From positions 342,108 through 406,107 of the forward strand of contig JAWBAK010000001.1 in assembly GCA_038997165.1 (NCBI GenBank): a stretch of DNA of 64,000 nucleotides, in the 5' to 3' direction. The position numbers and the translations under genes are program-made. The notes beneath the pieces were generated by a model. That model was not told where the DNA came from. It saw only the letters and a list, made by a program, of their open reading frames with translations, and did no database searches. The stretch comes from Candidatus Aenigmatarchaeota archaeon (GTDB taxonomy: Archaea > Aenigmatarchaeota > Aenigmatarchaeia > CG10238-14 > SpSt-28). This document shows, one piece after another, positions 2,343 through 63,988 of this stretch; the stretch's first letter is position 1; every line of letters begins with the position of its first letter.

Positions 2343-3293
2343 ATGGAAAATAAAAAAACGATTAAAATGAAAATAAATTTTTGGCAAATAACTACAATAA
2401 TTCTATTTATTGCTCTTGTACTATCTCTTTATACAAATTATACTGGTAGATTCTTATTTATAAATTTAAATTATTTGAATCTAGAAGAAATAGGAAAAAA
2501 AACTGTTGATTACATTAATAAATATTTTGTTCAACCAGGAACTTCTGCAAAACTAAAAGAAGTTAAATTTGATAGCTCTTTAAATCTTTATATTGTAATT
2601 ACTGAATATCAAGGAAATGAAATTCCTGTTTATGTTAGTAGCAATGGAAAATATATTGTCGGCTTTAATCAAGTTTTTGATATGGATAAACCTTTAAGAA
2701 TTGAAAGAGAAGAAGCTAAACCTCAAGAAATTCCTAAATCTGATAGACCAAAAGTAGAATTATTTATATTTAGCTATTGTCCATATGGAGTACAGGCATT
2801 AAAACCTTTTGCAAGTGTTGCAAAATTAATGAAAGATTATGCAGATTTTTATGTTAAATTCTTTAGTCATATGCATGGAGAATTTGAAAAACAACAAAAT
2901 ATAATACAAGCATGCATAATTAGAATGTATCCAGAAAAATATTGGGATTATGCAATTAAATTTGCTGATGAAGTTTTTAGAAAATGTTATGGAAATAAAG
3001 AGTGCGATAAAAATGAAAGCATAAGAATTATGAATGAATTAGGAATTGATAGTAATAAGATTTTAAAATGTTTAGAGAGTGAAGGAGAAAAATATTATAA
3101 TGAAGATATTAAAGATGCTGAAAATTATGGATTAACAGGTTCTCCTTCTTTTGTAATTAATGGAGTTTATGTAAGAGTTGTAAGAAGTGAGGAAGGAATT
3201 AAAGAAGCAGTTTGTCAAGCATTTAATATTCAGCCATCTATTTGTCAAGAAAAACTATCTGAAGAAATTACTCAATCATCGGGAAGTTGTTAA
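2343..3293 (+). CDS. Membrane-anchored thioredoxin/DsbA-like thiol-disulfide oxidoreductase
   Basis: N-terminal TM helix, CPYG (CxxC-type) active-site motif in FSYCPYGVQA, and C-terminal TGSPSFVINGVYV typical of the DsbA/thioredoxin fold. Confidence 0.55.
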   Translation: MENKKTIKMKINFWQITTIILFIALVLSLYTNYTGRFLFINLNYLNLEEIGKKTVDYINKYFVQPGTSAKLKEVKFDSSLNLYIVITEYQGNEIPVYVSSNGKYIVGFNQVFDMDKPLRIEREEAKPQEIPKSDRPKVELFIFSYCPYGVQALKPFASVAKLMKDYADFYVKFFSHMHGEFEKQQNIIQACIIRMYPEKYWDYAIKFADEVFRKCYGNKECDKNESIRIMNELGIDSNKILKCLESEGEKYYNEDIKDAENYGLTGSPSFVINGVYVRVVRSEEGIKEAVCQAFNIQPSICQEKLSEEITQSSGSC

Positions 3294-4397: not shown

Positions 4398-5149
4398 AGT
4401 TAAACACAAAACCCCTAAATTTAGAATATAGAAATAAAAAATTGTTTTTAGATAAAATTGAAATAAGGCCCACTACAAGGAAGTTAATAGATATGAAAGA
4501 CGTTTTAATGGACCCTTCTTTTATAAATAAGAAAAATCAGAACGAAATTCTTTATTTAATGTATAGAGATTTGAAAAGAAAAGAAGACAAAGTCTTATTT
4601 AGAAAGTATGAAGTGAGATATGACATAACAATAATTTTTTCTAAATATTTAGGAAAAGAATTTAATAAAACTTTTGGGCATTTACATCCTATTGCAGAAA
4701 ATAATTTAACGTATCCAGAAGTTTATGAAGTTTTATATGGAAAAGCTTTATTTATATTACAAAAGTATGAAAAAAAGAAAGTTAAAGATGTTTTATTGAT
4801 TTATGCCAAAAAGGGTGATAAAATTTTAATTCCCCCAAACTATGGTCATGTAACTGTAAATATAGGCAAGAGAGATTTAATTTTATCTAACTTGGTTAGT
4901 AATAAATTTTCTTCAATTTATGAATTATATAAAAATAAAAACGGGGCTGCTATCTATATAATTAGAAATGGAAAAAAAATTCAAATAGTTAAGAATAAAA
5001 AATATACTGAAAAGTTTAAAATTAAAATCATCAAAAAAATTAAGTTCTTTAAATTTTTTAAGGAAAATTTGTATTCTTCTTTTATTAATTATCCACAATT
5101 TTTTAAATTTTTAAATAAACCTTCCTTAATTATCAATTTACATTATTAA
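4394..5149 (+). CDS. pgiA: Cupin-type glucose-6-phosphate isomerase (archaeal cPGI)
   Basis: FGHLHP...EVYEVLYGKALFILQ...PPNYGHVTVN matches the metal-binding cupin signature (GHxH..E..H) of archaeal PGI. Confidence 0.55.
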   Translation: MKLNTKPLNLEYRNKKLFLDKIEIRPTTRKLIDMKDVLMDPSFINKKNQNEILYLMYRDLKRKEDKVLFRKYEVRYDITIIFSKYLGKEFNKTFGHLHPIAENNLTYPEVYEVLYGKALFILQKYEKKKVKDVLLIYAKKGDKILIPPNYGHVTVNIGKRDLILSNLVSNKFSSIYELYKNKNGAAIYIIRNGKKIQIVKNKKYTEKFKIKIIKKIKFFKFFKENLYSSFINYPQFFKFLNKPSLIINLHY

Positions 5150-5156
5150 ATTTCTT

Positions 5157-6065
5157 CTATATTATTTCTAATCTTCTTAATTCATTATTTATATAATCCA
5201 ATTCGTTTCTTAATGTTTGTCTTTCTTGATCGCTTAAAGATGGATTTGCTAAGGCTTTTAATATTTGTTCTCTTCTTGTAAGAAGTTGTTGTATATAATC
5301 TACGTCTTGACCCCTTACTATTGCTTTTCCTATCATTCTCATTCTTTCTGTGAATTTCCAAATACTACTTATAGCTCTATAAATAATTCCAAAAAGAAGA
5401 TAATTAATTGCTAATAGCGCAACTCCAGCAAAACTATAAGAAAGTAATTCTACAAACATTGATGCTAATAATCCTCTATATGCTATAAGTGCCGAAGCAA
5501 AAACAACAACTCTTCTTACATTTTCGTTTGTTAGAAAATCTATAAATTCATAAAAAAGTGCAATAATAAGTGAAAGGGGTAGTATTAAAGCAAAAATTAG
5601 AAAACTTCCTATAGTAGTTATTTCTAGATCTTTAGGTGCATATCCTATAATTATACAACTTCCTGTTACAATCAAATTTTTTGAAATTTCGTTTGTTGTG
5701 GAAATATTTTTACATTCTTTAATAAGAGGATCGGGTTTACCTATAAATCTTGCAGCAAAAAGTATTTCTATACCAAAAATTCCAATAAAAATTAAAAAAA
5801 CACCAAATATTGCAATATATTTTCCTCCCCTTCCCCAGTATCGTGCCAAATAGGCACCACCAATTGTAATTACGGTACCTAATAAAATAAAAAGAATTGA
5901 TGCTCTACCCCAAGACGGAATTTCTTCTTCAATTCCTCCAAATATTTGAAAAAAATATTTTTCTACTACAAGAGAATAAAAGAAATATACGAGGGGAATT
6001 AGAATGATTAAAGCAATTAAAGCAATTATCATTATCCACCAGTTTCTTCCTACCATCTGGCTCAT
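5157..6065 (-). CDS. Integral membrane protein with C-terminal coiled-coil tail, uncharacterised
   Basis: Multiple TM segments and a charged C-terminus (LSDQERQTLRNELDYINNELRRLE). Confidence 0.3.
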   Translation of the reverse strand: MSQMVGRNWWIMIIALIALIILIPLVYFFYSLVVEKYFFQIFGGIEEEIPSWGRASILFILLGTVITIGGAYLARYWGRGGKYIAIFGVFLIFIGIFGIEILFAARFIGKPDPLIKECKNISTTNEISKNLIVTGSCIIIGYAPKDLEITTIGSFLIFALILPLSLIIALFYEFIDFLTNENVRRVVVFASALIAYRGLLASMFVELLSYSFAGVALLAINYLLFGIIYRAISSIWKFTERMRMIGKAIVRGQDVDYIQQLLTRREQILKALANPSLSDQERQTLRNELDYINNELRRLEII

Positions 6066-9425: not shown

Positions 9426-9929
9426 ATGGCAGTAGGACTTTTTGTTGCAAGGTTTCAACCTTTACATAAAGGGCATGAAAGAGCTATAAAGAAAGCTTTG
9501 AAGCTATATGAAAAAGTAATAGTAGTAATAGGAAGTGCAAATAAAAGTAGAGAAGAGAAAAATCCATTTACAGCAGAAGAAAGAAAATTAATGTTAGAAG
9601 CAGTATTTTCTAAGGAAATTAATGAGGGAAAAATTGAAGTATTGGCAATAGAAGATAAAGAGAGTGATGAAGAATGGGCAAATGAAATAATAAATAGGGT
9701 TAATTTTGATGAAGTTTATACTGCTAGCGATTGGGTAGCAAAAGCTTTTGAAGGAAAGAAGAGTGTTAAGAAATTTAAGCCTTTTAAATATGAAACTATT
9801 AACGGAACAAATATAAGAAGATTAATAAAAGAAGGCAATGAAGAATGGAAAAAATATGTAAATAAAAAAGTAGTTGAAATAATTCAAAAAATTGCAGTTA
9901 AAGAATTTTTCTCAAAACTTTCTCCTTAA
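9426..9929 (+). CDS. Nicotinamide-nucleotide adenylyltransferase (archaeal NMNAT)
   Basis: GLFVARFQPLHKGH (GRFQPxHxGH) and IGSANKSREEKNPFTAEER. Confidence 0.85.
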   Translation: MAVGLFVARFQPLHKGHERAIKKALKLYEKVIVVIGSANKSREEKNPFTAEERKLMLEAVFSKEINEGKIEVLAIEDKESDEEWANEIINRVNFDEVYTASDWVAKAFEGKKSVKKFKPFKYETINGTNIRRLIKEGNEEWKKYVNKKVVEIIQKIAVKEFFSKLSP

Positions 9930-9947
9930 TTTTTTTAATTTTTTAAT

Positions 9948-10022
9948 TAGCGGGGGGTGGATTTGAACCACCGACCTCCGGGTTATGAGCCCGGCGGGCA
10001 CTCCAGGCTGCCCTACCCCGCT
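9948..10022 (-). tRNA. Initiator tRNA-Met (CAT)
   Basis: Reverse complement AGCGGGG..GGGCTCATAACCC..TTCAAATCC..CCCCGCT-A shows an A1:U72 pair and three G:C pairs closing the anticodon stem, both archaeal initiator hallmarks. Confidence 0.9.
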
Positions 10023-10077
10023 ATCACTATAATTTATTTTATTTTTTGAATGAAATAAATTATTTTCAAAAATATTT

Positions 10078-11496
10078 ATGGAAGAAAGAATAAAAGAAGT
10101 AATTAGAGAGGCGTTAAAAATTTCTGTCCCGTCAAAAGCGGAGTATGAATATATGAATGAAATTAAAGAAAAAGTTTTGCATATTACTCAACAACATGCA
10201 AAAATTTATAATGCAGATGTTATGGTTTGTGGAAGTTTTGCAAAGAATACTTGGTTACCTAAAAAATATGAGATTGATATTTTTATTTTATTTTCTCCTA
10301 AATTAGAGAGAGAAAGATTAGAAGAACTTGGATTAATAATAGGAAAAAGAGTTGCAGAAGAGCTTAATGCTGAATATATTATAGAATATGCAGAACATCC
10401 ATATGTAAGAATAAAATATAGAGATGTTCAAATAGATTTAGTTCCTGCATATAAAGTTGAAAAAGCTAGTGAAAAAATAAGTGCTGTTGATAGAACTCCT
10501 TTTCATACAAAATATGTTATAGAAAAATTAAAAAATGTATTGAATGATGAAGTTAGATTGCTAAAAAAATTTATGATTGCTAATGAAATTTATGGAGCCG
10601 ATGCAAAAACAAATGGATTTAGTGGCTATGCTTGTGAACTTTTAATAATTAATTATGGAACTTTTTTAAATACATTAATAGAAGCAGCTAATTGGAAGCC
10701 AATAACAATTATTGATATAGAAAATTATTATTCTGAAAATGAAAAAGAAATTTTAAAAAAGATTTTTAAAAATCAACCCTTAATAATTATTGATCCTACA
10801 GATAAAGATAGAAATGTTGCTGCAGCAGTTAGTCCATATAATTATTTTAAATTTATTAGTTTAGCAAAGAAATTTTTACAAAATCCTTCAATTTCATTTT
10901 TTGAAAAAAAAGAATATAAGATAGTTGAAGAAGAAGAAATAATAAAATATCAAATTGATAGAAGAACTGAATTAATAATATTAAGATTTATTAGACCAAA
11001 TATTGTTGACGATATAATTTATCCTCAAATGAGAAGATTTGCAAATAGAATTCAAAGTATTTTAGAAAAATATGAGTTTAAAATTTTAAATAAAGATGTT
11101 TTTTGTAACGAAAAATTTTGCTATTTAGTTTTAGAAATGGAAATATCTAAGCTACCAAAAATTGAGAAAAAGAGAGGTCCAATATTTTATGATATTAATA
11201 ACACAAAAAGATTTTTAGAGAAGTATAAGAATTACGTAACTTATGTTGAAAACGATAGATGGTATGCAGAAATACCAAGAAAATTCGTTAGAGCTATAGA
11301 TAAGATTATAGATAGTTTAAGCAAAGATGAAAAAACTTTAAGAGAAAAAGGCATTCCTAGCTTTGTTGCACAGCAAATTTCTAAAGGTTTTGAAATTACT
11401 AATGAAACATCTAAAATATTAACTTTTGTTAAAGAAGATAATGAATTTGGCAAATTCTTAACTAAATTTTTAAATAAAGAAAAATTAGAGATATGA
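10078..11496 (+). CDS. cca: CCA-adding tRNA nucleotidyltransferase (archaeal class I)
   Basis: GSFAKNTWLPKKYEIDIFILF nucleotidyltransferase motif, DRTPFHTKYV, ~470 aa. Confidence 0.9.
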   Translation: MEERIKEVIREALKISVPSKAEYEYMNEIKEKVLHITQQHAKIYNADVMVCGSFAKNTWLPKKYEIDIFILFSPKLERERLEELGLIIGKRVAEELNAEYIIEYAEHPYVRIKYRDVQIDLVPAYKVEKASEKISAVDRTPFHTKYVIEKLKNVLNDEVRLLKKFMIANEIYGADAKTNGFSGYACELLIINYGTFLNTLIEAANWKPITIIDIENYYSENEKEILKKIFKNQPLIIIDPTDKDRNVAAAVSPYNYFKFISLAKKFLQNPSISFFEKKEYKIVEEEEIIKYQIDRRTELIILRFIRPNIVDDIIYPQMRRFANRIQSILEKYEFKILNKDVFCNEKFCYLVLEMEISKLPKIEKKRGPIFYDINNTKRFLEKYKNYVTYVENDRWYAEIPRKFVRAIDKIIDSLSKDEKTLREKGIPSFVAQQISKGFEITNETSKILTFVKEDNEFGKFLTKFLNKEKLEI

Positions 11497-15409: not shown

Positions 15410-16587
15410 TAGTTAGAGATATAAAAATTAGAGAAATTTTTTCTCATAATCTAAAGGAAACAATTGAAGTAGAGGTTGAAATTTCTAAAGGAAAAGTAAG
15501 AGCTAGTGTTCCTATAGGAACTAGTAGAGGAATTTATGAAGTTGAATATTTACCAACAAAAGAAGTTATTAAAAATTTTTTGGAAATAAGGGAAAAATTT
15601 AGAATGAAGGAATTTAAGAATTTTGAAGAAGTTGATAATATAATTTTAGAGTATGATAAATCAGAAAAATTAAATAAAATTGGTGGAAATTTAGCTTTGG
15701 CAATTTCCTTAGCAATGCTAAAAGCGTTTGCATTGCACGAAGATTTAGAAGTTTTTGAATATGTAAGTAGCTATTTTAATTTTAAAATAAAAATTCCTAA
15801 GCCAGTATGCAATGTAATAGGTGGGGGAAAACATTTTGGTGGAAGTGATTTTCAGGAATTTTTATTAATTGGAAAGACTTCAAATTTTAAAGAAGAAATA
15901 AAAAAAATAATAAATTTATACTTTAAAATTGCTGAAAGATTAAAAAAAGAAGATAGATCATTTAATTTTGGAAGAAATTTAGAATCTGCATGGATAACGA
16001 ATTTATCAACTAAAAGAATTCTAGAAATTCTTAGAAACTTTTCAAAAGAATATGAACTATATGTAGGAATAGATGTAGCCGCTTCTTCTTTTTATGATGC
16101 TTCTAAAAAAATGTATGTATATGAAAAAGAAGGATTAGAACTAAATAGAATAGAGCAACTAAGCTATTTATATGATTTGATTAAAGAGTATGAAATTTTT
16201 TATATTGAAGACCCATTTTATGAAGAAGATTTTGTAAGTTTTGCAACATTATTATCTCATTTTCCTCAAAAATTAATTGTTGGAGATGATTTAACAACTA
16301 CTAATTTAGAAAGATTAAAAAAAGCGAGCGAATTAAAGTCAATAAATGGAATAATAATTAAACCAAATCAAATAGGCTTAATTACAAAAGTTGCAGAAGT
16401 TATAAAATTTGCTAAGAAGAATGATATAAAAATAATATTTTCTCATAGAAGTGGAGAAACAGAAGATCCAGTAATTTCTCAGCTTGCTGTAGGATTTGGT
16501 AGCGAATATATAAAATTAGGAATTGCTGGAGAGAGAACCATTAAGATAAACGAAATTTTAAGAATAGAAGAAAAAATTTTAGGGTAA
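15406..16587 (+). CDS. eno: Enolase
   Basis: SHRSGETED signature, IKPNQIG, GDDLTTTN. Confidence 0.9.
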   Translation: MIVRDIKIREIFSHNLKETIEVEVEISKGKVRASVPIGTSRGIYEVEYLPTKEVIKNFLEIREKFRMKEFKNFEEVDNIILEYDKSEKLNKIGGNLALAISLAMLKAFALHEDLEVFEYVSSYFNFKIKIPKPVCNVIGGGKHFGGSDFQEFLLIGKTSNFKEEIKKIINLYFKIAERLKKEDRSFNFGRNLESAWITNLSTKRILEILRNFSKEYELYVGIDVAASSFYDASKKMYVYEKEGLELNRIEQLSYLYDLIKEYEIFYIEDPFYEEDFVSFATLLSHFPQKLIVGDDLTTTNLERLKKASELKSINGIIIKPNQIGLITKVAEVIKFAKKNDIKIIFSHRSGETEDPVISQLAVGFGSEYIKLGIAGERTIKINEILRIEEKILG

Positions 16588-17850
16588 AATAAATAAATTA
16601 TTTTCATAAGTTGGTACAATTGCTTGTATTCCTCTTTCGTTTAATTCTTTTTCAAATTTTTCTAAATTTTCACCATGAACAATAAAAACAATATTTGGAT
16701 TTACCTTTTCTATAAATTCGAATAATTCACTTCTATCTGCATGTGCAGAAAATTCATAAAGTTTATATTTGCTTTTAACTTTTTTATTAAAACCATCCTT
16801 TGTAATCAATTTTCCAGTTTCTAATAAAATTCTTCCAGTAGTTTTTTCAAGTTGATAACAAGTTAAAAATATTGCATCATTTTCGTTATTATAAATTTTT
16901 TTAACATAATATTCGGCTGGACCACCTTCTAACATTCCAGAACCACAGATAATAATTTTTGGATCTTTTTTCATTATAATTTCTTTTCTTTGTGCTTTTC
17001 TTTTAACTTTTTTCGAATTTTTTAAAGCTTCTAAAAAATATTTTTTTTCATTCAAATAATTTTCAAATTTTTGATATATTTTAGATATTTCTATTACCAT
17101 ACCATCTAAGTAAATATCTACTTCTTTATGTATATTATATTTTCCTAAAATTGTCAAAATTTCTTGAGATCTTCCAACAGCTAAAGAAGGAAGTAAAATT
17201 GTACCATCTTTATCTAAAACTTCTCTTATATCATTTATAAATTCTTTTTCCAATTTATCTCTTTCTGGTAAATTTTTATACCAATATGTCCCTTCAATTA
17301 TCAAAATATCTGGATTTTTTTCTGGAAAATTGCAACCAAAAGTTAAATTAGTTTTTCTAAGTTTAAAATCACCAGTATATAAAATTCTCTTATTATTTAT
17401 TTCTAGTTCAATCATAGAAGCTCCTAATATATGGCCTGCATCTATAAATTTGAAACTAAAACTTTTCTTTTCAAAAACTTTTTCATAGCTAACATTTCTA
17501 AATTTTGAAATAATTTTTGAAATATCGTTTTCATCGAATGGAAAGTTAATTTTCTTTTTTCTAAGTACTTTAAGGTTATCTCTTAAAAGTATACTTGTAA
17601 TTTCTTTTGAAGCTCTTAATGCATAAATTTTTGTTTTATTTTTTGAAAAATAAGTTATATAACCGCTATGATCTAAATGGGAATGAGATAATAAAATGTA
17701 ATTAACATTTTCAACCTTTAAAGGTGTTTTTGGTGGATTTTCAAAAACTTTTAGTCCATAATCTAAAAGAATTTTTTCACTATTACTTTCTATTAAAATT
17801 CCACTATTTCCGATTTCGTTTAGTGCGCCTAAAAATTTAATCTTTATCAT
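16579..17850 (-). CDS. Metallo-beta-lactamase/beta-CASP ribonuclease (aCPSF2-like)
   Basis: HSHLDHSG motif, ~420 aa, C-terminal HGE motif typical of the beta-CASP family. Confidence 0.7.
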   Translation of the reverse strand: MIKIKFLGALNEIGNSGILIESNSEKILLDYGLKVFENPPKTPLKVENVNYILLSHSHLDHSGYITYFSKNKTKIYALRASKEITSILLRDNLKVLRKKKINFPFDENDISKIISKFRNVSYEKVFEKKSFSFKFIDAGHILGASMIELEINNKRILYTGDFKLRKTNLTFGCNFPEKNPDILIIEGTYWYKNLPERDKLEKEFINDIREVLDKDGTILLPSLAVGRSQEILTILGKYNIHKEVDIYLDGMVIEISKIYQKFENYLNEKKYFLEALKNSKKVKRKAQRKEIIMKKDPKIIICGSGMLEGGPAEYYVKKIYNNENDAIFLTCYQLEKTTGRILLETGKLITKDGFNKKVKSKYKLYEFSAHADRSELFEFIEKVNPNIVFIVHGENLEKFEKELNERGIQAIVPTYENNLFILP

Positions 17851-32581: not shown

Positions 32582-32730
32582 GCCGGGGTCGCCTAGTGGA
32601 CATGGCGGCGGACTTGAGTGATAGATTGGCGTGAAACTGATAAGAGATATAAAAAATGATGTGGGTGTCGAAATAAGAAAGAAATCCGCTGGGCTCTAAG
32701 CCCGCGTGGGTTCGAATCCCACCCCCGGCG
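32582..32730 (+). tRNA. tRNA-Ser (TGA), class II, with 65-nt intron (32619..32683) at the canonical 37/38 position
   Basis: GCCGGGG..GCGGA-CTTGAG|intron|A-TCCGC, long variable arm TGGGCTCTAAGCCCGC, T-arm GTGGGTTCGAATCCCAC, CCCCGGC-G. Confidence 0.85.
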
Positions 32731-34635: not shown

Positions 34636-34918
34636 GGTGGGGGCACGCTTAGGGTCGATAGATTAACCCACTACGATTTACCCAACCCTCGGCTAATAAG
34701 CATATCCGTGAACGCAGATATTATAGCTTATGGCTGCTTCCTTTCGGACCTCACCAGGTTCGCTATAATATCTGCCCCACGGATATGCTTATTTCATAGC
34801 CTAAGGTTGGATCGTAGTGAGTTAATCTACCTTCCCTAAGCTACGGCGGCCGTTATGGACCGTTTGCCCTGGCATTTTGCCAGAGGGGAGGCCCAGCCCC
34901 CCGCCGGAGGCCCCCACC
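34636..34918 (-). ncRNA. ffs: Signal recognition particle RNA (7S/SRP RNA)
   Basis: GC-rich island with paired ends GGTGGGGGC...GCCCCCACC. The minus strand reads CCTGGTGAGGTCCGAAAGGAAGCAGCC, the conserved helix 8 SRP54-binding motif with a GNAR loop, inside a long extended hairpin. Confidence 0.85.
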
Positions 34919-34994: not shown

Positions 34995-35123
34995 ATGAAC
35001 TACTTACTTTTTGAAGAAGAGGAGGAAGAGGAAGAAGAAGAAGACTTTGAAGAAGAAGAAGAGTGGGAAGAAGAAGAGCTGGAAGAAGACTTTGAAGAAG
35101 AAGAAGAGTGGGAAGAAGAGTAA
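34995..35123 (+). CDS. Possible 42-aa hyper-acidic micro-protein (MNYLLFEEEEEEEEEEDFEEEEEWEEEELEEDFEEEEEWEEE)
   Basis: ATG at 34995, TAA at 35121, read by hand and below the ORF-track length cut-off. Built on a GAA-rich tandem duplication. Coding status unproven. Confidence 0.25.
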   Translation: MNYLLFEEEEEEEEEEDFEEEEEWEEEELEEDFEEEEEWEEE

Positions 35124-35127
35124 TAGA

Positions 35128-35988
35128 CTAAAAAACTTTAAAATCTATCCTTACTTTATATATTTTTGGTGCATAAGGCAAAACTTTTATTTTTTCAAGG
35201 ATTTCATAATTAAAGTTAAATAGTTTAGTAGCTTCTTCAATATCATTTAACGCTTTTTCAAATAAATTATCTTCTTTACCCCAATTATAGTAATGAATAA
35301 TTGTATTTTCTTTAGCAAATTCTAATGCTTTAATTAAAAAATTTTCTGTAGAAATTGGTAATGTAACTAAAATTCTGTCAAATTTTTCTTTTAAATTTAA
35401 ATATCTTACATCGCAAATTATATTAAATAATTTATTTTCCACCTTATTTATTTTTTTATTTTCTTCTGCATATTTTATTGCGTATTTATTAATTTCTATA
35501 CAATAAACTTTTACATTTTTTATTTTTTTAAAAATTGCAAATGCAAACGGAGCAATACCACTAAATAAATATAGTATCTTTTCGTTTTCTTTAACTTTTG
35601 ATGCTATTCTTTGTCTTTCAGTTGATTCTCTCGGAGAAAAATAAACTTTTGTTGGATCTAATTTTAGAAAATAACCATATTCTTTATGAATTACTTCAGT
35701 ATTTTTATCTCCGATTATTTCAAATTCATATAATCTTAGATTACCTTTTCTTGGCGTTTTTTTAAATAATACAGATTTAACATTCTTATTCAATTCCATT
35801 ATAGCTTTTGCTATTTCGTTTTTATATCTATCATATATTTCATTCCAATCTATAATAGCAACAGCTTTTTCTTTATTACCAATTATATCAAAACTTCTAG
35901 GTATTTTATCTAAAATTTCTTTAGGAATTTTATCCTTTAATTTCTCTTTTAACATAATTATGAATATGATAGTTGCACTAAATTTCAA
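35128..35988 (-). CDS. trm5: tRNA (guanine37-N1)-methyltransferase Trm5 / Met-10+ like
   Basis: RSFDIIGNKEKAVAII, class I SAM fold (LYLFSGIAPFA), DRILVTLP. The likely true start is the internal Met at 35955 (MLKEKLKD), which removes the overlap with tpiA. Confidence 0.65.
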   Translation of the reverse strand: MKFSATIIFIIMLKEKLKDKIPKEILDKIPRSFDIIGNKEKAVAIIDWNEIYDRYKNEIAKAIMELNKNVKSVLFKKTPRKGNLRLYEFEIIGDKNTEVIHKEYGYFLKLDPTKVYFSPRESTERQRIASKVKENEKILYLFSGIAPFAFAIFKKIKNVKVYCIEINKYAIKYAEENKKINKVENKLFNIICDVRYLNLKEKFDRILVTLPISTENFLIKALEFAKENTIIHYYNWGKEDNLFEKALNDIEEATKLFNFNYEILEKIKVLPYAPKIYKVRIDFKVF

Positions 35989-39715: not shown

Positions 39716-39815
39716 GCCGGGGTGGCGGAGCGGTTTCACGCGGCGGGCTGCAGGGTTTTGCGATTTATGAGCGATAGAAACCCGCAGATCCCGGGTTCAA
39801 ATCCCGGCCCCGGCT
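39716..39815 (+). tRNA. tRNA-Cys (GCA) with 26-nt intron (39754..39779)
   Basis: GCCGGGG..GCGGG-CTGCAG|intron|A-CCCGC..CCGGGTTCAAATCCCGG-CCCCGGC-T. Discriminator U73 fits Cys identity. Confidence 0.85.
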
Positions 39816-49976: not shown

Positions 49977-50103
49977 TGCGGGGGGTGGGATTTGAACCCA
50001 CGACGGCTCTACGCCATCGGGTTTCTTATCATTTATTCAAAGCTTAAGATTTTATATCTTTATCTTAAGCCCGACGCCCTTGGCCAGGCTAGGCGACCCC
50101 CGC
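49977..50103 (-). tRNA. tRNA-Leu (TAA), class II, with 41-nt intron (50023..50063)
   Basis: Reverse complement GCGGGGG..TCGGG-CTTAAG|intron|A-CCCGA, variable arm TGGCGTAGAGCCGTC, GTGGGTTCAAATCCCAC-CCCCCGC-A. Confidence 0.85.
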
Positions 50104-54171: not shown

Positions 54172-54311
54172 GCCGGGGTCGCCTAGCGGAAATGGCGCCG
54201 GCCTCGAGTTAAATGATAAGCTCTGGGGTAGCTGAAAGATAATGATGATTTTGTTATAAGAGAAAGCCGGTGGGCTCTAAGCCCGCGTGGGTTCAAATCC
54301 CACCCCCGGCG
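54172..54311 (+). tRNA. tRNA-Ser (CGA), class II, with 56-nt intron (54209..54264)
   Basis: GCCGGGG..CCGGC-CTCGAG|intron|A-GCCGG, variable arm TGGGCTCTAAGCCCGC, GTGGGTTCAAATCCCAC-CCCCGGC-G. Confidence 0.85.
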
Positions 54312-55551: not shown

Positions 55552-55650
55552 TGGGGCCGCTGGGATTTGAACCCAGGTTAACGGGTTTCCTCATTTTATC
55601 GGTGCTCCATTTCTGGAGCCCGCCGTCCTACCTGGCTAGACTACGGCCCC
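55552..55650 (-). tRNA. tRNA-Trp (CCA) with 26-nt intron (55587..55612)
   Basis: Reverse complement GGGGCCG..GCGGG-CTCCAG|intron|A-CCCGT..CTGGGTTCAAATCCCAG-CGGCCCC-A. Confidence 0.85.
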
Positions 55651-58767: not shown

Positions 58768-59794
58768 TTTTATTTCTTCAGTTAATTATCCAAATGTTAA
58801 TTTGGGTGTTTTGTCTTTACCTATAATAGATGAAAGAAGTTATTATTTAGATTTTCCAGAATTATGGTATAAAGATAAATTAAGTTTTGAAAAGATAATT
58901 GAATTAAGAGCAAGTTTAATATATTCTTTTAAAAATGTTAATATAAAAAAACAATTTAGTTTATCAGAAAAAATTCAAGAATTGGCATTAGCAAAAAATG
59001 TTGTAGATTTGGAAGTTAATTTAAAAAATTATCCTAAATTTAAATTTTTGTTTAATAAATATTTTGCTCCTATTGGAAATCCTGCAAAAATAGAAAATTT
59101 AAAAATTCAAAGCAATATAAAAATTGAAAATTTTGTTGAAAAAATTGTTAATGATGAAATTAAAGCTTCTGAGGCAACATTTTTATTATATAAAAAAGGA
59201 TTGGAAATATCTAGAATTCAAAAAATTTTTTCTGCTGGATTATTGGGTATCGAAAAGAAATTTGTTCCAACTAGATGGAGCATTACAGCTATAGATAGTA
59301 TTATTAGCGAGAAATTAATCAAAAAAATTAGAGATTATAAAATCTTAGATAAATTTCAAATTTTTTATAATGAATATTTAGGAAACAAATTTTGGATTGT
59401 TCTATTACCATATGTTTTTGGTTTTGAAATGATAGAGTTTATTGGAAATAAATTTTATCAAGATTATGAAATATTTTTTGAGAGAAAAAAATATGCAGAA
59501 AGTGTTGCAGGTGGTTACTATGCAGCTCGATTAGCATGTTGCGAATATTTAGAAAGAATAAAAAGGCAAGCTGCTATAATTGTTTTTAGAAAAATAGAAG
59601 AGTTTTATACAATTCCTTTAGGTGTATGGAAAGTTAGAGAATGTATAAGAGATGCTCTTAACAAAAAACCTATTGAGTTAAATTCTTTAGAAGAATTGTT
59701 AAAATATTTAAGCAATACAAATTTAAATATAGAGTTAAGTAAGATTTTAAGAATTTATACTAAACAAAAAAGAGTAATTTATTTTAATATTTAA
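58619..59794 (+). CDS. Nre-family (DUF650/DUF651) putative DNA repair protein
   Basis: GSSPPSIFISSVNYPNV and VPTRWSITAIDS resemble the archaeal Nre N/C domains. The likely start is the Met at 58664 (MKFREIP). Confidence 0.5.
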   Translation: MFIASNLKIIKFNIFMKFREIPKELIKNVYKWKILIENKKDFVGSSPPSIFISSVNYPNVNLGVLSLPIIDERSYYLDFPELWYKDKLSFEKIIELRASLIYSFKNVNIKKQFSLSEKIQELALAKNVVDLEVNLKNYPKFKFLFNKYFAPIGNPAKIENLKIQSNIKIENFVEKIVNDEIKASEATFLLYKKGLEISRIQKIFSAGLLGIEKKFVPTRWSITAIDSIISEKLIKKIRDYKILDKFQIFYNEYLGNKFWIVLLPYVFGFEMIEFIGNKFYQDYEIFFERKKYAESVAGGYYAARLACCEYLERIKRQAAIIVFRKIEEFYTIPLGVWKVRECIRDALNKKPIELNSLEELLKYLSNTNLNIELSKILRIYTKQKRVIYFNI

Positions 59795-59814
59795 AAATAT
59801 TTTAAAGGCAAATT

Positions 59815-59864
59815 ACAAAACAATTAAATGCATACCATTATGGAAATGGTTGCTAGAAATTTAA
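59815..59864 (+). repeat. Orphan fragment of the conserved ATPase 3' module (last ~16 codons plus stop)
   Basis: ACAAAACAATTAAATGCATACCATTATGGAAATGGTTG matches the 3' ends of the genes ending at 62599 and 63988. It reads KTIKCIPLWKWLLEI-stop but has no gene body upstream. Confidence 0.7.
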
Positions 59865-59894
59865 AAGTTATTTTTTTCTGAAATTTTAATAAAC

Positions 59895-59912
59895 TTCCCT
59901 ATATATAGGGAA
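59895..59912. promoter_or_regulatory. Perfect 18-bp palindrome TTCCCTATATATAGGGAA with TATA-like core, upstream of the first ATPase paralog
   Basis: Self-complementary by inspection. The half-site TTTCCCTATATAT recurs at 59928..59940, and a related ATCTTTCCTAAATATAT lies at 61302..61318 before paralog 2. Confidence 0.3.
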
Positions 59913-59942
59913 ATATTTATTTAAATCTTTCCCTATATATTT

Positions 59943-61229
59943 ATGGTAGGGGACTTAAAAAGATATTTTCTAAACAAAAAGGAAGAAATAAAAAATTTGA
60001 AAGTTGAAAAAAGGTTAATACCTCATTCTTTTTCTATAGAGTTTATTTCTTGTATAATAGGTCCTAGAAGAGCTGGAAAAACTTATTTTTTATATGACTT
60101 AATTCTCAATAAATTACATTTGAAGGATTCCGATTATCTTTTTGTGAATTTTGAGGATTATGAAATCAAAGGAAGAAATAGAAAAGAAATTTTTAATATC
60201 ATTCATTATCACAACGAAATATATGGAAAATATCCACAATATCTATTTTTTGATGAAATTCAAGCATTAGAAAATTGGCAGAGTTTTGTTTATTCACTCT
60301 ATGAAAAGAAAAAGTATTTTATCTTTATTACCGGCTCTTCTTCAAAATTATCTAGTAGAGAAATTGCAACACAATTAAGGGGAAGAACCTTTTCATTAAA
60401 AGTTCTTCCATTCAGCTTTAAGGAAATTTTATCTATTAAAAATTTTGAGTTAAACAAAAGTGTTTTTTCCTCTTACGAAGAGTCAGAAATTAAGCATATA
60501 TTAAAAAATTATTTGGAGAAAGGCGGATTTCCGCAGCTATGGATAGAAAAAATTAATGAAAAAATATTTTTTGGAGATTATATAGATGTTGTAGTTTTTA
60601 AAGATATAGTTGATAGATTTAAAATTAGGAACATAACAACAATAAAAATGTTAATTTCTTCTTGTATTTCATCTTTTTCAAAAGAGTTTTCAATCAAAAA
60701 AGTATATAATACTTTAAAGAGTATGGGAATTAAAATTAGTAAAAATTCTTTATATTCTTATTCTTCTATGTTAAGAGAAGTAATGTTTTGTTTTAACGTT
60801 TATAAATTTAGTTATTCTGAAAGGGAAATTTTGGGTTCAATTCCAAAGATATATATCTGCGATGTTGGTATTCCAAATTTTTATTTATCCTCAAAAATAG
60901 ATGAAAATATAGGCAGAATAATGGAAAATGTTGTTTTTTTGGAATTATATAGAAATGAAAATATTGATATTTTTTATTGGAAAGATTATCAACAAAACGA
61001 AGTAGATTTTGTAATTAAAGAAGGATTAAATATTAAACAATTAATTCAAGTAACTTATGCATCTAATAAAGATGAAATTGAAAAAAGAGAAATAAAAGCA
61101 TTAATTAAAGCAAGTGAATTGCTTAAATGCAAAGACTTATTAATAATTACTTGGGATTATGAAGATGAAATAAATTTTGAAAACAAAAAAATTAAATGCA
61201 TTCCATTGTGGAAATGGTTGTTATTTTAG
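59943..61229 (+). CDS. AAA-type ATPase with DUF4143/PD-(D/E)xK-like C-terminus (COG1373 family), paralog 1
   Basis: Walker A GPRRAGKTY, Walker B FFDEIQ, GSSS...QLRGR, C-terminal NEVDFVIKEG. Confidence 0.75.
   Translation: MVGDLKRYFLNKKEEIKNLKVEKRLIPHSFSIEFISCIIGPRRAGKTYFLYDLILNKLHLKDSDYLFVNFEDYEIKGRNRKEIFNIIHYHNEIYGKYPQYLFFDEIQALENWQSFVYSLYEKKKYFIFITGSSSKLSSREIATQLRGRTFSLKVLPFSFKEILSIKNFELNKSVFSSYEESEIKHILKNYLEKGGFPQLWIEKINEKIFFGDYIDVVVFKDIVDRFKIRNITTIKMLISSCISSFSKEFSIKKVYNTLKSMGIKISKNSLYSYSSMLREVMFCFNVYKFSYSEREILGSIPKIYICDVGIPNFYLSSKIDENIGRIMENVVFLELYRNENIDIFYWKDYQQNEVDFVIKEGLNIKQLIQVTYASNKDEIEKREIKALIKASELLKCKDLLIITWDYEDEINFENKKIKCIPLWKWLLF
60981..61229 (+). repeat. Conserved 3' module, copy 1 (~250 nt)
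   Basis: From AAAGATTATCAACAAAACGAAGTAGATTTTG to the stop it is nearly identical in nucleotide sequence to 62348..62599 and highly similar to 63758..63988. Confidence 0.85.
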
Positions 61230-61321
61230 CAATATAACTACAAGCCTTTTAAAATGTTCGTGATTATTAAAGTTTCATATTATGGGTAAACTTTTTAAAT
61301 AATCTTTCCTAAATATATGAT

Positions 61322-62599
61322 ATGTTTGAGAAAGATTTTGTGCTTCAATATTTTGATAGAATTATTGAGAAAATTAAAGTCGAAAGAATTTTTGAAAGAG
61401 AGTTAAAAGTAGATTTTCTTAAAAATAAGGCTATAGCAATAATTGGACCAAGAAGAGCTGGAAAAACTTATTTTTTACTTAATATTTTAAAAAATAATAA
61501 AAATGCTTTATACGTTGATTTAGAGCATTCTGCCTTCAAAGAAATTACACATAAAGAATTTTTTGAAATAATATCGATTTTTGAAGAATATTTTAAAACT
61601 AGAGTTGAAAAAGTGATTATCGATGAAATACAAAATTTAAATAACTGGGAAAGTTTAGTTAGGAGTTTGCTTGATAGCGGATATTATTTGATGATTTCAG
61701 GTTCTTCTTCAAAATTGTTAAGTAAAGAAGTTTCGACTCAATTAAGGGGAAGAAGCTTAAGTTATGTTTTATTGCCCTTAAGTTTTAGAGAGTATCTTAA
61801 ATTTAAAAATATAGAAAGAAAAAAACTTATATCAATTTCTGAAAAAGTGAAGATAATTAAACTTTTAGAAGAGTTCCTAGAATGGGGTAGTTATCCAGAA
61901 ATATTGGTTTATCCAGAAAAAAAGGAAAAAATTTTAAAAGAATACTTTGATACAATTTTTCAAAAAGATTTTATAGAAAGATTTGAAATAGTTCATACTT
62001 ATATTGCAAAATTACTCTTCGAATTTGTTATTCAAAACTTTTCAAAAGAAATAAGTTTAAACAAAATAGCTAATTTTATTTCTTCAAAAATAGGAAGAAA
62101 TATTAAAAATATTGTTTATGATTATGCGGAAAAATTACCAGAAAGTTTAAGCGTATTTTTTGTAGAAAAACTTAGTAAAAGCATTTATGAAAGAAAATCT
62201 TTAGGAAGAAAAATTTATGTTTGTGATTTGGGTTTAGTGTCGATGTTAAGCATGGAAAAAAATATAGGAAGAAGAATGGAAAACGCTGTTTTTCTTGAAT
62301 TATTAAGAAACACTAATTTTAATCCCTTACAAGAAATCTATTATTTCAAAGATTATCAACAAAACGAAGTAGATTTTGTAATTAAAGAAGGATTAAATAT
62401 TAAACAGTTAATTCAAGTAACTTATGCATCTAATAAAGATGAAATTGAAAAAAGAGAAATAAAAGCATTAATTAAAGCTTCAGAGCAATTAAAATGCAAA
62501 GACTTATTAATAATTACTTGGGATTATGAAGATGAAATAAATTTTGAAAACAAAAAAATTAAATGCATACCATTATGGAAATGGTTATTAAGAATTTAA
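61322..62599 (+). CDS. AAA-type ATPase with DUF4143/PD-(D/E)xK-like C-terminus (COG1373 family), paralog 2
   Basis: GPRRAGKTY, IIDEIQ, GSSS...QLRGR, NEVDFVIKEG. Confidence 0.75.
   Translation: MFEKDFVLQYFDRIIEKIKVERIFERELKVDFLKNKAIAIIGPRRAGKTYFLLNILKNNKNALYVDLEHSAFKEITHKEFFEIISIFEEYFKTRVEKVIIDEIQNLNNWESLVRSLLDSGYYLMISGSSSKLLSKEVSTQLRGRSLSYVLLPLSFREYLKFKNIERKKLISISEKVKIIKLLEEFLEWGSYPEILVYPEKKEKILKEYFDTIFQKDFIERFEIVHTYIAKLLFEFVIQNFSKEISLNKIANFISSKIGRNIKNIVYDYAEKLPESLSVFFVEKLSKSIYERKSLGRKIYVCDLGLVSMLSMEKNIGRRMENAVFLELLRNTNFNPLQEIYYFKDYQQNEVDFVIKEGLNIKQLIQVTYASNKDEIEKREIKALIKASEQLKCKDLLIITWDYEDEINFENKKIKCIPLWKWLLRI
62348..62599 (+). repeat. Conserved 3' module, copy 2
   Basis: See copy 1. The internal protein difference to copy 1 is ASELLKC versus ASEQLKC, plus the last residues. 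Confidence 0.85.
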
Positions 62600-62659
62600 A
62601 AGCTATATAATTTAGAATATGTCACAAGTGACGTAAAATATTAATTTTTTATGTCATAA

Positions 62660-63988
62660 ATGATATATATGAAGAAAGAGGAAATAATAAGTGTATTATC
62701 TTCGGTTAATTTTTGGGGAAGAGAAGATATAGATGTAGGAATAGAGAGAAAATTTTATAATTCTCAAATATTAAATTTTTTAAAAGGTGTTGAAAAAGTA
62801 ATAACAATAACAGGAGTTAGAAGGAGTGGAAAGAGTTATATATTAAAGCAAATTGGAAAAAAGTTATCAGAAAAGTTTGGAAAAGAAAACGTTCTTTATG
62901 TTAATTTCGAAGAAGTTAAATTTTTTGAGGAGCTAAGCTTATCTTTTTTAATAAAAATATACGATGCTTTTAAAGAAATTGTGAGACCAAAAACAAAACC
63001 TTTTTTAATTTTGGATGAAATTCAAGAGGTTCCAAAATGGGAAAAGTTTGTTAGAAGCTTGCATGAAAAAAAAGAAGCTTTTCTTATAATTTCTGGCTCT
63101 TCTTCAAAGCTTTTTAGTGAAGAACTTGCTACTTTATTAGCTGGTAGAGAATTAGAAATAGAGGTATTTCCATTGGATTTTAAAGAGTTTCTCCAGTTTA
63201 AAAATTTTGAAATAGAAAAAGAAATAGATTTAATTATAAAAAAAGAAAAAATTATAAGATTTCTCAGAGAATTTTTAGAATTTGGTGGCTTTCCAGAGGT
63301 TGTTTTAGAAGAAAATGAAAACAAGAAAATTGGTATTATTAGAAAATATTTTGATACAATAGTATTAAAAGATGTTTTAAGAAGGTTTAAATTAAGAGAA
63401 AGTTATAAGTTAGAAGCGCTCTGTAATTATTACGTTTCAAACTTTTCAAACTTAATAACTTTTAATTCTGTTGCAAGATTTCTTAAAATTTCTGAAAAGA
63501 CTACTGAAAGATTTTCAAAGTATTTGCAAATTGCAAGAATTATATTTTTTGTTGAAAGATTTTCATATTCATTTAAATCAAGATATAAATCTGCTAGGAA
63601 AGTTTATGTTATAGATACTTCTTTTTCAAATTTATTAGGAATAAGGTTTTCAGAAAATATAGGTAGACTTATGGAAAATTTGGTTGCTATAGAACTATTA
63701 AGAAGATCGAAGAGAAGTTTAAAAGAAAATTTCTTTTATTTAAAAATTAATGATAGCGAGGTTGATTTTGTTATTAAAGAAGGCTTAAATATTAAGCAAT
63801 TAATTCAAGTAACTTATGCATCAAATAAAGATGAAATTGAAAAAAGAGAAATAAAAGCATTATTAAAAGCAAGTGAATTATTAAAATGCAAAGATTTATT
63901 AATAATTACTTGGGATTATGAGGATGAGATAAATTTTGAAAACAAAACAATTAAATGCATACCATTATGGAAATGGTTGTTAAGTTAA
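62660..63988 (+). CDS. AAA-type ATPase with DUF4143/PD-(D/E)xK-like C-terminus (COG1373 family), paralog 3
   Basis: GVRRSGKSY, ILDEIQ, GSSS..LLAGR, SEVDFVIKEG. Confidence 0.75.
   Translation: MIYMKKEEIISVLSSVNFWGREDIDVGIERKFYNSQILNFLKGVEKVITITGVRRSGKSYILKQIGKKLSEKFGKENVLYVNFEEVKFFEELSLSFLIKIYDAFKEIVRPKTKPFLILDEIQEVPKWEKFVRSLHEKKEAFLIISGSSSKLFSEELATLLAGRELEIEVFPLDFKEFLQFKNFEIEKEIDLIIKKEKIIRFLREFLEFGGFPEVVLEENENKKIGIIRKYFDTIVLKDVLRRFKLRESYKLEALCNYYVSNFSNLITFNSVARFLKISEKTTERFSKYLQIARIIFFVERFSYSFKSRYKSARKVYVIDTSFSNLLGIRFSENIGRLMENLVAIELLRRSKRSLKENFFYLKINDSEVDFVIKEGLNIKQLIQVTYASNKDEIEKREIKALLKASELLKCKDLLIITWDYEDEINFENKTIKCIPLWKWLLS
63758..63988 (+). repeat. Conserved 3' module, copy 3
   Basis: Same module with scattered, mostly synonymous substitutions. 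Protein differs from copy 1 at a few positions (ALLKAS, ENKTIKC). Confidence 0.8.

Follow-up and report, generated by a model that had tools for sequence, protein, structure and literature searches.

The window analyzed here is a 64-kb stretch of DNA from a 549-kb contig, with a GC content of ~23% throughout, and the nearest relatives of this contig are metagenome-assembled genomes (MAGs) of Candidatus Aenigmatarchaeota. At its right end, directly downstream of an Nre-like gene, the window carries a tandem array of three genes on the same strand, here called g1, g2, and g3, whose open reading frames (ORFs), proposed in an initial annotation made from the sequence alone, were confirmed. Over most of their length, referred to as the body, the encoded proteins are diverged (mean identity of 38%, maximum of 41%), sharing the motifs Walker A, Walker B, and GSSSKL..QLRGR, and all three genes end in the same 225-nucleotide (nt) block. 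Bodies were assigned to types, designated by letters, by comparison with array loci of three relatives (L001, L002, and L003). The genes and their parts are as follows:

59943..61229, plus strand: g1, ORF call
59943..60998, plus strand: g1 body (type A), with an AAA_14 ATPase, a helical/winged-helix region, and helix α1 and strand β1 of the nuclease fold (from Pfam, PADLOC, AlphaFold2, and body typing)
60999..61229, plus strand: g1 shared block (60999-61223), then a variable one-codon tail and stop
61230..61321, plus strand: type-B upstream spacer, conserved with the spacers preceding type B in L001 and L003
61322..62599, plus strand: g2, ORF call
61322..62365, plus strand: g2 body (type B), matching the type-B bodies of L001 and L003 at 98% nucleotide identity (from Pfam, PADLOC, and body typing)
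62366..62599, plus strand: g2 shared block (62366-62590), then tail RI and stop
62660..63988, plus strand: g3, ORF call
62660..63757, plus strand: g3 body (type C; from Pfam, PADLOC, and body typing)
63758..63988, plus strand: g3 shared block (63758-63982), then tail S and stop

An alternative start of g3 at 62669 yields the 439-amino-acid (aa) product that is on record. The window ends 12 nt past the g3 stop codon, and because arrays of related Aenigmatarchaeota carry 6-10 genes in tandem, the array is probably cut by the window edge, with only its left end in view; a metagenome scan returned no exact match to the window end. Elsewhere in the window, we found no other copy of the block and no other paralog.

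The shared 3' block

The block comprises 75 codons, EVDF...WKWLL, running from the E codon of EVDF to the second L codon of WKWLL, and its three copies in the window are 96-97% identical in amino acids and 91-94% in nucleotides, which agrees with the near-identical 3' module described in the initial annotation. Its edges are sharp. Identity between g1 and g2 begins exactly at 60981 and 62348, respectively, where an abrupt step had been noted, 18 nt (KDYQQN) before the block common to all three genes; the profile pooled from 82 within-genome paralog pairs of the window and the three relatives is likewise stepwise, with ungapped nucleotide identity of 0.33-0.52 before the block, 0.73-0.96 within it, and 0.39 after it. 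The additional claim that the copies are almost identical even at synonymous sites was overstated: at positions with identical amino acids, codon identity in the window is 83% in the block versus 63% in the bodies, and synonymous divergence (dS) of the block is ~0.42 in the window (pairwise values of about 0.4-0.5), i.e., well below saturation and not near zero.

The block is under strong purifying selection at the protein level, as shown by a ratio of nonsynonymous divergence (dN) to dS of ~0.09 and by the finding that 58 of the 95 variable block sites among 26 copies are third codon positions. Among 47 homologs from many lineages, it is the most conserved long stretch, with 65-71% pairwise identity compared to 33-58% over most of the body. 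We also searched 1.8 billion cluster representatives without an index and obtained 1689 matches to the block at E ≤ 0.001. In all of the best 150 of these 1689 matches, it is the C terminus that carries the block; these matches are either proteins of roughly 405-465 aa, with a maximum of 464 aa, or shorter fragments, and no other architecture carrying the block occurred among them. The matches listed in a module-only protein search are all ≤144 aa, many of the NCBI-named ones being labeled partial; this size probably reflects a length limit of the search tool in addition to genuine fragments at contig ends, and architectures were therefore not counted from this search. No viral contigs encoding the block were found.

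Arrays in related genomes and exchange of the block

The arrays of the relatives differ from that of the window in gene content and order. The window reads A-B-C. L001, an 11-kb contig, consists entirely of eight tandem genes (B-E-I-D-A-F-G-H), while L002 has seven genes, of which the complete ones read H-J-A-F-D-C, and its contig stops 33 nt into a block. In L003, the same S3-L29-SUI1-radical SAM-Nre flank as in the window is followed by nine tandem genes (K-L-A-G-B-E-D-C-M). Downstream of the ninth gene in L003 lie a gene for a ParA-like ATPase and a small winged-helix gene (16759-17798, minus strand), followed by a tenth gene of the family at the contig end; this pair may be the leftover of a plasmid-like element.

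The same 75-codon block closes all 26 complete genes of the window and L001-L003. By their bodies, these genes divide into 13 types (A to M); the types are 30-48% identical to one another, and orthologous bodies of different genomes are 85-100% identical. Across 22 loci including the window, bodies are 32-54% identical and blocks 65-100% identical in nucleotides; in the most extreme pair, bodies with 32% identity carry blocks that match at 225 of 225 nt. In relatives, the same module is thus joined to other N-terminal bodies, for which the initial annotation had suggested a search. A scan of one genome per species returned 280 block-encoding stretches, mostly from hot-spring and hydrothermal Aenigmatarchaeota; in other archaeal phyla there is usually a single block copy per locus. 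Wherever dS of orthologous bodies was measurable, dN lay well below it, which indicates purifying selection; the array, proposed to be diversifying, is so in its content and order but not in its sequence.

To which genome a block belongs says more about its sequence than to which body it is attached. Nucleotide identity of blocks is 0.889 within a genome, and between genomes it is 0.874 where body types agree and 0.870 where they do not. Blocks differing at 30-35 of 225 sites were found on orthologous bodies with 98-99.9% identity (type-D bodies, 99.9% identical, carry blocks that differ at 30). When 13 genomes were compared, nucleotide and codon identity of blocks within a genome exceeded the values to distant genomes in 13 of 13, and block similarity to closely related genomes was about equal to that within a genome. 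For 98% of the genes the nearest body is in another clade, and in 83% of genes the block resembles those of paralogs in its own genome more than the one attached to this nearest body. Where residues are identical, codon identity amounts to 0.67-0.83 in the block versus 0.55-0.63 in the bodies. In addition, blocks are mosaic: two haplotypes at block positions 113-128, with serine encoded by TCA or AGT, are both present in every genome, and the PHI permutation test was significant for L003 (p<0.001), L002 (p=0.016), and all 26 copies (p<0.002). Judged from these comparisons, the block is shown to have been exchanged between paralogs by homologous recombination, both in short conversion tracts and by crossovers; it therefore evolves in concert within a lineage, uncoupled from the bodies, whose orthology between genomes is retained.

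We then mapped where gene orders part. In five of five three-way comparisons, the gene follows its own ortholog throughout the body and stays with a new sequence through tail and spacer, namely that of the block preceding its downstream neighbor in the relative; the switch falls about 0-65 nt into the block. The tail, variable and 0-4 residues long, and the spacer travel with the downstream gene, not the upstream one. In the window, for instance, the body of g2 (type B, preceding type C) corresponds to L003 type B, and its block and spacer to those of L003 type D, which precedes type C in that genome. Loss of E and D from the L003 order B-E-D-C through a block-to-block crossover therefore yields the window order B-C. 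The sequence alignments show that differences in gene order between these genomes have their junctions inside the block. The five junctions mapped all fall into its first third, a hint of a 5' bias in a sample too small for a verdict. Together with mosaicism and the PHI results, these crossovers in relatives bear out both gene conversion and cassette-like recombination at the module, two causes that the initial annotation had listed.

Upstream of g1 lies an orphan end of the block:

59817..59864, plus strand: orphan, last 15 codons plus stop codon, KTIKCIPLWKWLLEI, matching the block end

The stretch 59815-59871 is 89% identical to the end of g2 over 57 nt, and a further alignment (84% over 68 nt) extends beyond the stop codon; in tblastn, the orphan reads as 13-15 residues, KTIKCIPLWKWLLEI. 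Positions 59810-59986 of the window are collinear with L003 7030-7200, which there comprise the end of type L, the intergenic spacer, and the start of type A. By this collinearity, the orphan, suspected from the outset to be the remnant of a deleted copy, is shown to be the scar of two deleted upstream genes, namely type K and nearly all of type L. The deletion was not block-to-block, because its left end falls just after Nre. Internal 3' remnants of ~84-173 residues, consisting of a block without its upstream body, occur in L007 (~9908-10225), L059 (~5162-5422), L060 (~1122-1600), and L074 (~5075-5350) and are longer versions of the window orphan.

The divergence of the window from L003 differs between array and flank. 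For the core genes adjoining the array (S3, L29, SUI1, radical SAM, and Nre), nucleotide identity is 77-82% and dS, for the genes where it was estimable, 0.65-0.95; the array bodies have dS values of 0.33 (A), 0.088 (B), and 0.090 (C). Since the bodies are far less diverged than the adjacent core genes, the array genes are much younger in common ancestry, which suggests that they were imported by recombination between lineages. Unique sequence links type A and the orphan to the core genome, and these two are still only ~10% diverged from L003.

Protein family, predicted fold, and promoter regions

All three proteins carry an N-terminal P-loop ATPase domain, PF13173 (AAA_14; E values of 2e-33 to 4e-35), with invariant G40, G45, K46, D104, and E105 in the Walker motifs, followed by PF13635 (DUF4143; 2e-14 to 6e-23). 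They also match PADLOC model PDLC04787 (PDC-S01) over their full length, from profile positions 9-25 to 407-408 of 412, at E values of 1e-87 to 1e-113; NCBIfam gave no match for the array proteins, nor did a sequence search of solved structures in the PDB. An AlphaFold2 model of g1 reached a pLDDT of 91 and a pTM of 0.90. The fold search with the whole protein was dominated by AAA+ proteins, the ATPase half resembling SSO1545 and ORC/Cdc6-type AAA+ proteins. By all sequence and fold criteria tested, the array proteins belong to PDC-S01/COG1373.

The C-terminal domain, modeled separately with a pLDDT of 85, is closest in fold to McrC (6ut7_G; E of 5e-4, query-normalized TM-score of 0.54, probability of 1.00), followed by Can2, DdmD, Hjc, and EndoMS. 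The model supports a PD-(D/E)xK-like fold, consistent with the restriction-endonuclease-like end predicted for these proteins. Two details of that prediction did not hold. The EVDFVIK element is not the E-x-K motif but an E-x-D strand, β2 (E353-V-D355), with which the block starts inside the nuclease fold; the remainder of the block provides β3 (Q369-V-T371), a helix with E383, β4, and a C-terminal hairpin and helix. Helix α1, bearing the invariant residues E328 and E334, and strand β1 sit in the variable body, and since the nuclease fold begins there, the block is not a whole domain, hence not in itself the constant effector end that had been proposed. Invariant residues of the C-terminal domain are E328, E334, E353, D355, Q369, and E383.

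DUF4143/COG1373 has been counted among the PD-(D/E)XK superfamily members as a family of unknown function (PMC3424549). PDC-S01 stems from a set of 145 untested candidates (bioRxiv 10.1101/2024.01.29.577857) and is described as a fusion of an ATPase with a PD-(D/E)-X-K superfamily member that is very common in archaea, validation being pending for most PDC candidates (PMC12988326). Its discovery was based on a location within or beside known defense systems. We surveyed the flanks of the arrays, for the window on the upstream side of the array. They contain genes for ribosomal proteins, SUI1, radical SAM, and Nre in the window and L003 and for glycosyltransferases and an S-layer protein in L008; the neighboring defense genes that had been envisaged were found in none of these three flanks. 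The description of the array as defense-like finds support in the membership of its proteins in a listed candidate family, PADLOC PDC-S01, and not in its surroundings, which in the window and L003 are housekeeping; a defense role is what the family would suggest.

Many array genes are preceded by a type-specific inverted repeat with arms of 8-14 nt, enclosing an AT-rich, TATA-like box and ending 2-16 nt ahead of the start codon, in a survey that covered the window, L001-L003, L008, L010, L035, and others. Two such regions lie in the window:

59901..59940, plus strand: type-A promoter region, inverted repeat ATATATAGGGAAA / TTTCCCTATATAT around an AT-rich TATA-like box (59914-59927)
62629..62656, plus strand: type-C promoter region, inverted repeat TGACGTAAAA / TTTTATGTCA around TATTAATT

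The type-A repeat ends 2 nt before the ATG, its score was reached by 0 of 200 shuffles, and the type-A orthologs of L001, L002, and L003 have conserved it. The type-C repeat is marginal, with a shuffle p of ~0.05-0.07. Among the 13 types of the window and its close relatives, repeats reached p<=0.01 in 4; of 43 genes examined in other arrays, 17 reached p<=0.01 and 25 p<=0.05. The type-specific repeat resembles an operator that overlaps the promoter and may be bound by the winged-helix region of its own gene product. The idea that operator similarity tracks body similarity was dropped: types A and L share similar arms, and the identity of their bodies, 38%, is unremarkable.

Outside the array, several other features of the window were recorded. 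A 70-nt stretch of the Nre-like gene (59052-59121) is 71% identical to window positions 2515-2584, which hints at a second Nre-like paralog near 2.5 kb. Five tRNA genes of 99-149 nt (32582-32730, 39716-39815, 49977-50103, 54172-54311, and 55552-55650) pass the Rfam tRNA threshold and escaped ARAGORN; they probably contain introns, and two of them have a common 56-nt 3' half with 95% identity. An archaeal signal recognition particle (SRP) RNA is encoded at 34637-34917 on the minus strand (Rfam RF01857, 115 bits), and just downstream of it a GAA-rich repeat with phases of 9-18 nt (35013-35138, plus strand) is probably the coding sequence of an acidic protein tail.

Alternative explanations and known systems

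Subject to strong selection on the protein, the block evolves partly in concert, and the bodies remain distinct; we put the probability of this evolutionary mechanism as a whole at about 0.75. Each gene consists of its own type-specific promoter region, a type-specific body of ~350 codons, and the common 75-codon block, and each array protein combines an AAA+ ATPase, a winged-helix region, and a PD-(D/E)xK-like nuclease domain. With the block as portable homology, whole genes could act as cassettes that are deleted, reordered, or imported from other lineages, and the array might represent a repertoire of sensing or recognition bodies on one nuclease core, directed against viruses or other foreign DNA. 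A further and quite speculative possibility, which we consider rather doubtful in its full form, is that the block serves as a universal homology arm in a recombinase-free cassette junction: Aenigmatarchaeota populations, DPANN archaea whose genomes measure only about 0.5-0.8 Mb, would exchange autonomous units, each with its own operator and promoter, sensing ATPase, and winged helix, that plug into a common nuclease core, giving an integron-like bank of immune specificities through ordinary homologous recombination. Paralogs might then also pair into mixed nuclease dimers, conceivable because the nuclease-core half is identical.

Could the block simply be the slowest part of old paralogs, its 75 C-terminal residues being held together by purifying selection with no exchange at all? 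Its low dN/dS, its 59-85% conservation in homologs of other phyla and in genomes with a single copy, and the codon bias that comes with 23% GC, by itself yielding a codon identity of 55-63%, all fit such an account. Selection alone is nevertheless insufficient, because codon identity in the block lies above this body baseline, block sequence carries no orthology signal even where bodies are 99.9% identical, and blocks group by genome; they are, moreover, mosaic, with significant PHI tests and mapped crossovers, and we regard this account as extremely improbable. Equally improbable is that the block is conserved for a nucleic-acid function overlapping the coding sequence, such as a small RNA, a terminator, or a regulatory RNA structure. 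The synonymous divergence of the block, which is lower than that of the bodies, would fit such a function, but the block has no Rfam match, its folding energy is no better than that of shuffled sequences (z of +0.54 sense and -1.30 antisense), and the excess of third-position variation and low dN/dS fit protein constraint. A dedicated site-specific system of the integron or shufflon kind, with a recombinase recognizing a site in the block, would account for genes that act as cassettes with their own promoters and for five of five junctions in the first third of the block; it seems very unlikely, given that no integrase or recombinase gene is present in the flanks of the window, L003, or L008, that switch points vary among the five events and short mosaic patches occur throughout the block, and that identity along the 225 nt is uneven with no standout core segment.

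Several observations weigh against concerted evolution of a defense array as outlined above, some of which bear on the remaining alternative, namely that collapsed or chimeric assembly of repeats created the block, the gene orders, and the apparent exchange between lineages. The relatives are all MAGs, presumably from short reads. The longest exact runs shared by blocks measure 77 nt (window) and 162 nt (L003), exceeding common k-mer sizes, and contigs often break at the block: that of L002 ends inside one (16529-16560), those of L047, L061, L068, L070, and L071 begin within 70 nt of a block start, and the best module-only matches listed are short fragments, as given above. Individual gene orders could therefore partly reflect chimeric joins between strains. 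Types B and C of the window are joined to A through blocks only, with A and the orphan alone being anchored, and the low divergence of B and C from L003 could stem in part from chimeric joins with a co-occurring strain. As an account of the whole, an assembly artifact is, however, very unlikely: the nucleotide sequence is individual to each of the 26 copies, which vary at 95 sites; at least two assemblies each contain the adjacencies B-E, A-F, and D-C, as well as the junction from L to A; the orphan junction lies in unique sequence; and the shared block recurs in more than 10 independent MAGs from different samples. Chimerism, raised in the initial annotation, may thus affect individual gene orders and is excluded for the shared-block pattern. 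Other reservations concern recombination and function. The PHI test was not significant in L001, the arrays of the window and L003 are flanked by housekeeping genes rather than known defense genes, and the third motif of the nuclease fold reads Q369-V-T371 in place of the canonical (D/E)-x-K, with the lysine not at its usual place, so that nuclease activity is only predicted from the fold model. Furthermore, PDC-S01 proteins are without demonstrated defense activity (PMC12988326; bioRxiv 10.1101/2024.01.29.577857).

PDC-S01 genes are reported to be among the commonest candidate defense genes in prokaryotes, especially in archaea. The arrays offer a natural dissection of the PDC-S01 protein into a constant part, the nuclease-fold strands from β2 onward and the C-terminal hairpin, and parts that are free to differ, i.e., the ATPase, the winged helix, and the promoter operator. 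They also illustrate a simple way in which an archaeon with a tiny genome could keep and renew a gene repertoire, by means of a short coding repeat that doubles as a recombination site. In practice, the block is a marker for finding such arrays and explains why they break metagenome assemblies.

The array proteins resemble PDC-S01 in matching the full-length model and in having the same architecture of an ATPase and a PD-(D/E)xK superfamily domain, whereas PDC-S01 has been described as a single-gene candidate and occurs here as a tandem array of many diverged types; in the literature, we found no report of tandem arrays of diverged PDC-S01 types sharing a recombining 3' block. Gene conversion and unequal crossover are already well known, but we found no description of a sharply bounded 3' block across up to 13 diverged types per genome serving as a junction for cassette turnover in a DPANN archaeon. 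Integron cassettes and Rhs/CDI orphan toxin-tip arrays are similar in that a constant sequence, which is the site of recombination, connects the variable units, truncated orphan pieces adjoin the array, and content turns over between close relatives. The present array differs from these in having no integrase or attC-like site and no immunity genes, and its constant part is the 3' end while the variable part is a large 5' body with its own promoter; compared to integrons, its recombination looks homologous and not site specific. The likeness of its C-terminal domain to McrC, Can2, DdmD, and Hjc is at the level of fold only, sequence identity being 12-19%. Long-lasting concerted evolution in prokaryotes has been surveyed for 26 genes, none of them of the PDC-S01/COG1373 family (PMC6053082). 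As with tuf and mtrA in that survey, paralogs within a genome are closer to each other than to their orthologs and bear signals of recombination; in the arrays described here, it is only a sharply bounded 225-nt segment of 6-13 very different genes that evolves in concert, and their bodies stay orthologous.

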